Assembly (NCBI RefSeq): GCF_003334335.1
Contig: NZ_QOWQ01000108.1
Direction: 5' to 3' (one strand)
Origin: Escherichia coli
Lineage (GTDB): Bacteria > Pseudomonadota > Gammaproteobacteria > Enterobacterales > Enterobacteriaceae
Length of the DNA stretch: 1,364 bases
Below the pieces are notes generated by a model. That model saw nothing but the letters and a program-made list of their open reading frames with translations. It searched no databases and had not been told where the DNA came from. How positions within the stretch are numbered: position 1 is the first letter of the stretch; the number at the start of each line of letters is the position of its first letter. Shown here piece after piece: positions 1 through 1,364 of this stretch. The translations under genes were made by a program, and so were the position numbers.

Positions 1-1364
1 GTATGCGCCCCGGTGTTATTCGTGGATTTGGTTCCGTAATCAAACGACGATGTGTTTTTCGTCCCCAAATCCGTACTGGATGCGCTGGCGCTGTGGGTGT
101 GCGATTTAATGCCGTCCTGTTCCTGAGACAATACGGCACGACCACTGGCGGGTTTGCCCTTAATCGTCCAGCCACGCATATCAGGGATCACGGCTGACGG
201 ATAAGCGGCTGCAAGTTTCGGGTATGCAGATTTGTCAAAAGTCTGCCCCTGCATCAGGGCATAGCCAGACGGAACGGTATCTGATGGCCACGGGATTGGT
301 GCGCCAGGCGGATAAAACTGCTCTGATGGCGTATAGAGTGAATAAACTGTACCGTCCGTTAACCCTTCCGGCTTATTAGCAGAATATGCTGGTGACGTAT
401 GAATCGTCACGCTGGCATTACTGGTATAATCCCATTGAATATTTACACCAGTCGCATAATTTCCGATTGCAACGTAAATATCGTAAGTATCACCAGATGT
501 ATTGACCCAGGCAAAATTTGTAAACCCTGTCGATGTGCGCTGCCATAAAGCACCAGTAATCCCCTTCGGATTACCATTACCTGCACGCAAAACAAGTTCA
601 GATATACCTGCCTGTTGAGGTGACCCCACGTTAAATCCCGCACCACCAATCAACGTAATTGAAACAACAGAACTCGCCTGTGGCATGGTTACCGTTGCTA
701 ATTTGAACCAACCAGCACCACCGCTGAATGACATTGTTGTTGAGTTAAGCGTACCAATATCTTTCGGCGTCAGTGTTATATCCGCTGAAAGCGCCTTACC
801 ATTCACCTTACGGGCAGAAGGTACCCGACCATTCGCATTATCATTAGCTGCTTTCACTGCTTTCGGTGTCGCGGCAAGCGTTTCAGATGCGCTGTTGGTT
901 GCACTACTGAGCTGGACAATTCCTTTTTGTGCTGTCGTAGCGTCCTGAGCAGTATATTTCCCGTTAGCAAGGTCATAGGCTGCCTTTACCGACTTTGGCG
1001 TTGCCGCCAGCATTTCAGATGTGCTGTTGGTCGCGTTGCTAAGCTGAACTATCCCTTTCTGTGCTGTCGTTGCATCCTGTGCGGTGTATTTCCCGTTAGC
1101 CAGCTCATACGCGGCCTTAACGGCTTTTGGCGTTGCCGCCAGTGACTCGGAAGTGCTGTTAGTCGCACTGCTGAGCTGTACTATCCCCTTTTTCGTCGTG
1201 CTCGCATCCTCAAGCGCCACGGCGGATGCAATATCCTCTGCCCGTTTTGCCGCTGTCTCAGCGCGCGTTGCCGCGGATTCCGCCGTACTTTTGCTCTGAG
1301 CTGCCGCCGTCGCACTGCCAGCTGCCTCTGTCGCCTTCGTGGATGCCGTCGTGGCGCTGCCCTT
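1..1364 (-). CDS. stf: Side tail fiber protein, lambdoid Stf family; internal fragment, incomplete at both ends (N-terminus beyond 1364, C-terminus beyond 1)
   Basis: Seen in sequence: the minus-strand frame with codons 1362-1364 down to 3-5 has no stop in 454 codons (bases 1-2 are a partial Thr codon). Translation begins [102 protein letters not shown]... and ends ...[99 protein letters not shown]. Established knowledge: KGIVQLSxATNS repeats, the NGKALSxDITLT motif, the tail-collar motif and HxH boxes are hallmarks of lambda Stf and related prophage side tail fibers (StfR/StfE-like) and the T4 gp37 distal fiber. Match is from memory, not from a search. Confidence 0.9.
3..104 (-). other. Start of the His-rich distal fiber region: HxH motif SHTHSA (87-104) and the terminal GAH(T) that probably opens a second H-x-H box
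   Basis: Seen in sequence: His codons at 99-101 and 93-95 (minus strand, H-T-H) and at 3-5. Established knowledge: repeated HxH boxes occur in the distal parts of T4 gp37 and lambda Stf, and coordinate metal ions in the gp37 tip structure. Only the first box lies inside the window. Confidence 0.55.
93..311 (-). other. Phage tail-collar-like domain
   Basis: Seen in sequence: [73 protein letters not shown]. Established knowledge: the pattern P-x-G-(W/Y)...(Y/F)P.L......PD(L/M)RG....G....(H-x-H) is the signature of the phage tail collar domain found in T4 gp12 and lambda Stf-like fibers. Assignment is by motif recall. Confidence 0.65.
315..746 (-). other. Gly/Thr/Ser/Asn-rich central domain of the fiber, function unassigned, probably beta-rich
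   Basis: Seen in sequence: translation [145 protein letters not shown]-richer DNA than the flanking stalk and repeat region. Structure is inferred from composition. Confidence 0.5.
753..806 (-). other. Conserved tail-fiber motif [18 protein letters not shown] directly after the repeat array
   Basis: Seen in sequence: aa 187-204 of the fragment. Established knowledge: NGKxLSxxITLTxxDxG-type motifs recur in long and side tail fibers of lambda, P2 and T4-like phages. Confidence 0.6.
846..1190 (-). repeat. Three tandem in-frame coding repeats of about 132 bp (44 aa): copy 1 at 1059-1190, copy 2 at 927-1058, copy 3 (partial, diverging after KAA) at 846-926
   Basis: Seen in sequence: copy 1 [44 protein letters not shown]; copy 2 [44 protein letters not shown]; copy 3 [27 protein letters not shown] then NDNANGR. 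Copies 1 and 2 are about 90% identical in protein but only about 80% in DNA, the differences being mostly synonymous third-position changes. Established knowledge: this resembles the phage tail fiber repeat of Stf-like proteins. Confidence 0.85.
1200..1364 (-). other. Ala/Thr/Ser/Lys/Glu-rich low-complexity segment of the fiber (aa 1-55 of the fragment), probably helical stalk
   Basis: Seen in sequence: translation [55 protein letters not shown]. Locally GC-rich DNA: 41 of 60 bases (about 68%) are G or C at 1261-1320, against about 35-50% in 421-720. A helical or coiled structure is inferred from composition only. Confidence 0.55.

Follow-up and report, generated by a model that had tools for sequence, protein, structure and literature searches.

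The window, by which we mean the whole 1364-base stretch of E. coli DNA that was analyzed, encodes on its minus strand part of a phage tail fiber, and positions 3 to 311 very probably specify two parts of the receptor-binding tip of a side tail fiber of the lambda type (Stf), namely, the tail-collar and the first ascending strand of the needle. The evidence for this assignment consists of sequence identity, domain matches, the count and alignment of HxH boxes, and the gene neighborhood in near-identical genomes, all of which were observed directly. That lambda Stf and T4 gp37 are homologous and that their tips are swapped has been established for decades, and a structure of the T4 tip is available. 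The fragment is nothing new in kind: it belongs to a long-known family whose mechanism is well described and which includes a close homolog of solved structure.

Reading of the ORFs showed that positions 3–1364 of the minus strand form a single open frame of 454 codons without a stop; the remaining two minus-strand frames contain many stops. Plus-strand ORFs, which reach at most 87 amino acids, were not taken as genes, because nothing supports them and the strand opposite them carries a strongly conserved coding sequence. The 454-codon frame is open at either end, so that the window represents an interior portion of a larger gene. Because this gene lies on the minus strand, sequence "beyond position 1" is sequence in the 3′, or C-terminal, direction. 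The earlier note had described a tail-collar motif followed by a first HxH box at 3–311, and all of the peptides it quoted were located in the 454-codon frame: the 48-residue segment PIPWP...WTIKG at 156–299, SHTHSASAS at 78–104, a 22-residue S/T-rich stretch at 9–74, and GAH at 3–11. Seventeen further residues, absent from that quotation, lie between WTIKG and SHTHS (105–155). Only one complete HxH box is found inside the window (HTH, 93–101), together with the first His of a second (3–5).

The frame corresponds to residues 408–861 of a 991-residue protein of E. coli strain Ecol_AZ155, whose gene is annotated as a prophage tail fiber; the window thus holds an internal fragment of a lambdoid prophage stf, open at both ends (3–1364, minus strand). 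On the same strand, the fragment begins with the end of an Ala/Ser/Thr-rich shaft (ORF residues 1–54; 1203–1364), the translation of which aligns to its counterpart in lambda orf-401. Together with orf-314, orf-401 makes up the frameshifted stf of laboratory lambda, each being one half. The shaft is followed by three tandem 44-residue Phage_fiber_2 repeats (ORF residues 55–183; 816–1202), which gave three matches to Pfam PF03406 with E values from 1.5e-19 to 4.6e-19. They are encoded by a DNA tandem repeat with a period of 132 at 877–1187, and the three 132-base units are about 80% identical to each other in DNA. Because orf-401 aligns to one Phage_fiber_2 unit only, the number of repeats differs between fibers. 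An exchangeable all-beta middle module, discussed below, occupies ORF residues ~190–346 (327–797). It is followed by the tail-collar domain (ORF residues 354–401; 162–305), which matched Pfam Collar (PF07484) with an E value of 1.5e-11, providing the collar-domain HMM match that the earlier note had named as a check, and which aligns with the collar of the T4 gp37 tip structure, 2XGF. The last segment, ORF residues 402–454 (3–161), was assigned as the first ascending strand of the His-box needle by residue-by-residue alignment to the needle of T4 gp37. Weak matches to Pfam Phage_fiber (PF03335) fell on the His boxes, and tail fiber families of PHROG matched the window ORF, with phrog_295 giving an E value of 6.5e-147. 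The Rfam search gave no family on either strand of the window, and the NCBIfam scan gave none for the window ORF, the full Stf, or Tfa.

To place the fragment in its gene, the sequence past the window end was read from genomes that are 99.5–99.9% identical to the window. The whole window is present at this level of identity in E. coli chromosomes, the best of which has one mismatch; none of the genomes compared was 100% identical to the window, and the exact 454-residue product had no record in the assembly collection. In 1314 of 5426 complete E. coli genomes, at least 80% of the window was covered at a place. The gene order in Ecol_AZ155 is tape measure, L, K-like peptidase, I, J, lom, stf, tfa. 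The J-lom-stf-tfa context was found in five to six annotated genomes whose window region is 99.9% identical, and also in phage PhiR26_1. In the near-identical genomes tfa lies directly downstream of stf, outside the window, and overlaps the stf stop codon. Its product is 94% identical to lambda Tfa and matched phrog_105, "tail fiber assembly," with an E value of 1.2e-100; the search for a downstream tfa that had been proposed was therefore positive. Residues 1–134 of the full Ecol_AZ155 protein, also outside the window, matched the prophage tail fiber N-terminal domain (PF08400) with an E value of 1.3e-71. By its sequence and that of its relatives, the gene is a lambda-type prophage side tail fiber gene, stf.

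Several other features were seen around the gene. In the Ecol_AZ155 prophage, an oppositely oriented gene for a class I SAM-dependent methyltransferase is located 3′ of tfa (L001:11394–12753), and beyond it are remnants of dinI, a second tfa, and a DUF4376 gene. This prophage adjoins a truncated ompW beside yciE and the trp operon. In several genomes the stf allele has become a pseudogene (L012:905–2107, L015:705–1907, L016:705–1907, and L018:1–1907). Three of these four copies are 5′-truncated and abut a fragment of the terminase large-subunit gene; the fourth is annotated as frameshifted, with its N-terminus missing. All four of these heavily decayed prophage remnants still retain an intact tip and tfa. 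With pseudogenes among its relatives, the gene in the source genome is only putatively functional.

The likeness to lambda Stf and T4 gp37 that had been pointed out from the peptides alone proved to be close. When the last 284 residues of the protein, extended from a 99.9% identical genome, were searched against all PDB sequences with phmmer, the T4 gp37 tip was matched with an E value of 9.9e-84 (2XGF_A). Like the Pfam match of the collar, this lies well outside what chance would give. Of the residues flagged in the window, 83 of 99 (84%) are identical to T4 gp37, and between the extended C-terminus and lambda orf-314 the identity is 70%. The 99.9% identical genomes have 130 residues past the window end. 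In the Ecol_AZ155-type protein the complete tip contains seven HxH boxes, at residues 829, 861, 875, 931, 945, 954, and 963, all in the same alignment columns as the seven of T4 gp37. Six of them, including the one split by the window end, lie past the window, which gives, for these near-identical genomes, the count of boxes beyond position 1 that had been proposed. Boxes 3 and 4 are separated by a spacer of 53 residues, which contains the head. Outside this spacer 141 of 178 positions (~79%) are identical to T4 gp37, whereas within it only 11 of 53 are identical. The collar of gp37 is reported in the 2XGF paper to comprise residues 811–861 plus 1016–1026 and the head residues 933–959, which fits our alignment.

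The same division into constant and variable parts was seen when this protein was aligned with lambda Stf, K-12 StfR, and PhiR26_1 Stf. The collar, the ascending strand, the return strand, and the C-terminus were almost invariant; the head was different in all four proteins, and the module upstream of the collar was unrelated in all four. Every E. coli prophage variant examined has seven HxH boxes, lambda has eight, and the length of the head spacer ranges from 36 to 53 residues across the variants. Of 5426 E. coli genomes, 3482 contained a cassette of collar, needle, and tfa at a coverage of at least 80%; the alignment was usually in two pieces, with the head left out between them. The S/T-rich stretch after the first HxH box represents the conserved first needle strand and is not a linker.

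Because the flagged region is 84% identical to T4 gp37, we considered whether the fragment might come from the gp37 long tail fiber of a T4-like lytic myophage instead of a lambdoid prophage Stf. This origin is extremely unlikely. The rest of the window resembles lambda Stf, with its Ala/Ser-rich shaft and Phage_fiber_2 repeats, and aligns to orf-401; the best full-length DNA matches, at 99.5–99.9% identity, are E. coli prophages with the J-lom-stf-tfa order; and the phage collection contains no record with a coverage of the window above 53%. A second alternative would make the collar that of a short-tail-fiber protein like T4 gp12, leading into a knitted receptor-binding domain instead of an HxH needle. 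A solved chain described as "short tail fiber" (9CUY) does match the collar region, with an E value of 5.2e-08, but this value is some 75 orders of magnitude poorer than that of the gp37 match, and the match is confined to the collar. Moreover, box 1 and the first strand of the needle are already present in the window in a form nearly identical to that of T4 gp37, which leaves a gp12-like protein barely any probability. We therefore return to the assignment to the tip of a lambda-type Stf, against which nothing in the window speaks.

In the gp37 tip, a collar is followed by a needle, where HxH motifs coordinate Fe, and by a receptor-contacting head; there the chain reverses its course, so that the needle comes to have six strands, with seven di-histidine motifs (PMC12609058). 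The C-terminus of lambda Stf has been likened to the gp37 tip and binds OmpC (PMC7291167; PMC12617516). Reversible binding of the Ur-lambda Stf to OmpC results in faster adsorption (PMC12617516). By homology to the T4 gp37 tip, three chains of the protein studied here would form the collar, from which a six-stranded beta needle would rise. Metal ions, which in T4 are iron, would hold the core of the needle together, and every ion would be coordinated by three HxH boxes, one per chain. Each chain would ascend the needle by way of boxes 1–3, a small hypervariable head at the needle end would contact the host receptor, and the chain would then return by way of boxes 4–7 to the collar. The adjacent Tfa chaperone would be needed for folding and trimerization of the tip. 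In this mechanism trimer formation, metal binding, chain reversal, and receptor binding are all carried over from T4 and lambda. By the same analogy, the head is an internal loop about 15–70 residues beyond the window end, and the last ~60 residues are the return strand to the collar. The flagged segment would then be the constant scaffold 5′ of the variable head, and it probably also serves as a homology arm for the exchange of heads between phages.

The continuation past position 1 was not the same in all relatives of the window, and its type was correlated with a single base inside the window. At position 193 (minus strand) the window has a single-base polymorphism that places Ala for Gly in AAYPS[G/A]VIPDMRG, and this is its sole difference from the 99.9% matches. 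Gly is otherwise invariant at this position in lambda Stf, StfR, PhiR26_1 Stf, and T4 gp37. An exact 71-mer containing the base found at window position 193 was present in 36 E. coli records, demonstrating that the Ala form is a real allele. Two types of head, designated A and B, follow the window end. The continuation reads ...THSLSGSTGSAGDHTHG... in the head A type and ...THSISGTANSAGAHQHK... in the head B type. All five of the sampled intact records with the Gly allele have head A, and all eight of the sampled records with the Ala allele have head B; in the carriers of the Ala allele the protein continues as ...AHQHK SSGAFGGTNTSIFPNGYTAISNLSAGIMSTTSGSGQTRNAGKTSSDG AHTHS..., again with seven HxH boxes. 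Four of these eight carriers match all 1364 bases of the window, at 99.5–99.8% identity. The genes adjoining stf in the Ala-allele relatives are annotated as tfaR or tfaQ and pinR or pinQ. Queries of 1 kb spanning the junction, counted at 80% coverage, do not separate head A, head B, and a deleted form described below, since a match in two pieces with the head left out also reaches that threshold.

The earlier note had placed the host-range tip just past position 1, and in the 99.5–99.9% identical genomes 130 residues with a head do follow there. Its caution that receptor specificity cannot be read from the window was well founded, since the window sequence is followed by at least two distinct heads, depending on the genome. 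The head A and head B lineages are polymorphic at the first base beyond each end of the window (L001:9000 and 10365 versus L011:364 and 1729). The last 640 bases of the window are identical to the head B lineage, and three variant sites upstream are as in the head A lineage. The coincidence of the window ends with points of allele divergence, together with the mixture of variant sites, suggests either that the assembly was broken where the alleles branch, leaving the window as one unit, or that the window is a collapsed repeat. Because the last 640 bases are shared exactly with the head B lineage, head B is, from the sequence, the better guess for the continuation of the window.

Comparison of Tfa between the lineages gave a different pattern from that of the head. 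Tfa is about 94% identical among head A genomes, head B genomes, and lambda (L001:10755–11339, L011:2107–2682, and L002:3074–3658); thus, the chaperone does not track the head. This absence of covariation is consistent with an action of Tfa on the conserved needle or the C-terminus.

A deletion found in two genomes raised the question of whether the source gene might be a truncated remnant. In strains HSP425 and AF58, whose window regions are 99.9% identical, the sequence continues for 20 bases past the window end and then jumps to the dinI/tfa remnant, and the frame stops 26 codons later. This deletion removes the needle, the head, tfa, and the methyltransferase gene (L006:2984–3053 and L007:2984–3053) and fuses stf just after HxH box 2, with no further box beyond the completion of that one. 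If the source genome carried the same deletion, just past the window end, its gene would lack needle, head, and tfa. We consider this very unlikely. Among 5426 complete E. coli genomes, a 160-base query spanning the deletion junction was fully covered in these 2 alone. Furthermore, both of the deletion genomes have Gly at the polymorphic collar position, unlike the window, and the Ala allele of the window leads into an intact needle and head in eight of eight sampled records. The outcome that the earlier note had named as evidence against its interpretation, a near-immediate stop with no more His boxes, therefore does occur in E. coli, but only in those two genomes. The preferred reading remains that of an stf whose tip continues past position 1.

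The middle module (327–797), whose exchange is independent of that of the head, contained no Pfam domain, and a search with the module alone against PDB sequences gave nothing up to an E value of 10. Its G+C content is 0.43–0.48, in comparison with 0.55–0.59 in the flanks. Homologs with 46–91% identity are found in fiber fragments of E. coli and Salmonella, where they are joined either to the collar or to other fiber modules. An AF2 model of the module, of moderate confidence (pLDDT 62), resembles beta sandwiches that are associated with tailspikes or bind carbohydrates; we treat these fold matches as a lead and not as a result. It is conceivable, though doubtful, that the module is an accessory glycan-binding domain conferring a second specificity, for example for O-antigen or capsule, in addition to that of the head. 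If so, two cassettes on either side of a constant collar, each exchangeable without the other, would together determine host range.

The results have two consequences for the study of host range. The collar and the first needle strand are a constant scaffold that carries no host-range information, and sequences with 99.5–99.9% identity are linked to different heads, so that host range should be deduced from short contigs only with caution. The scaffold also shows where chimeric fibers can be joined in host-range engineering.

One of the closest known systems is the Stf/Tfa pair of lambda (Ur-lambda). The near-identical genomes have the same J-lom-stf-tfa order, the N-terminus of the protein is 85% identical to orf-401, and its C-terminal tip is 70% identical to orf-314; Tfa is 94% identical to that of lambda, and the lambda Stf collar and both needle strands are nearly invariant. 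Unlike lambda Stf, the present protein has three Phage_fiber_2 repeats and a different module between the repeats and the collar. It also lacks an additional 10-residue repeat of lambda Stf, SFDYGTKTTG, and with it one box of the return strand, giving seven HxH boxes in comparison with the eight of lambda. Because the head segment differs from that of lambda Stf, binding to OmpC need not hold here.

The T4 gp37 tip (2XGF) is homologous in collar, needle, and C-terminus, and both proteins end in IVRLA. The head is longer here, however, with 53 residues between boxes 3 and 4 in comparison with 34 in gp37, and everything upstream of the collar is unrelated. The systems also differ in that T4 is a myovirus that uses gp38 as the counterpart of the chaperone, whereas the gene studied here belongs to a siphovirus-type prophage with Tfa. 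The StfR/TfaR pair of the E. coli K-12 Rac prophage and the related fibers of cryptic prophages (StfQ/TfaQ) share with it the collar, the needle strands, the Tfa family, and the seven HxH boxes, but in StfR the middle module is another one and the head, at 36 residues, is shorter.
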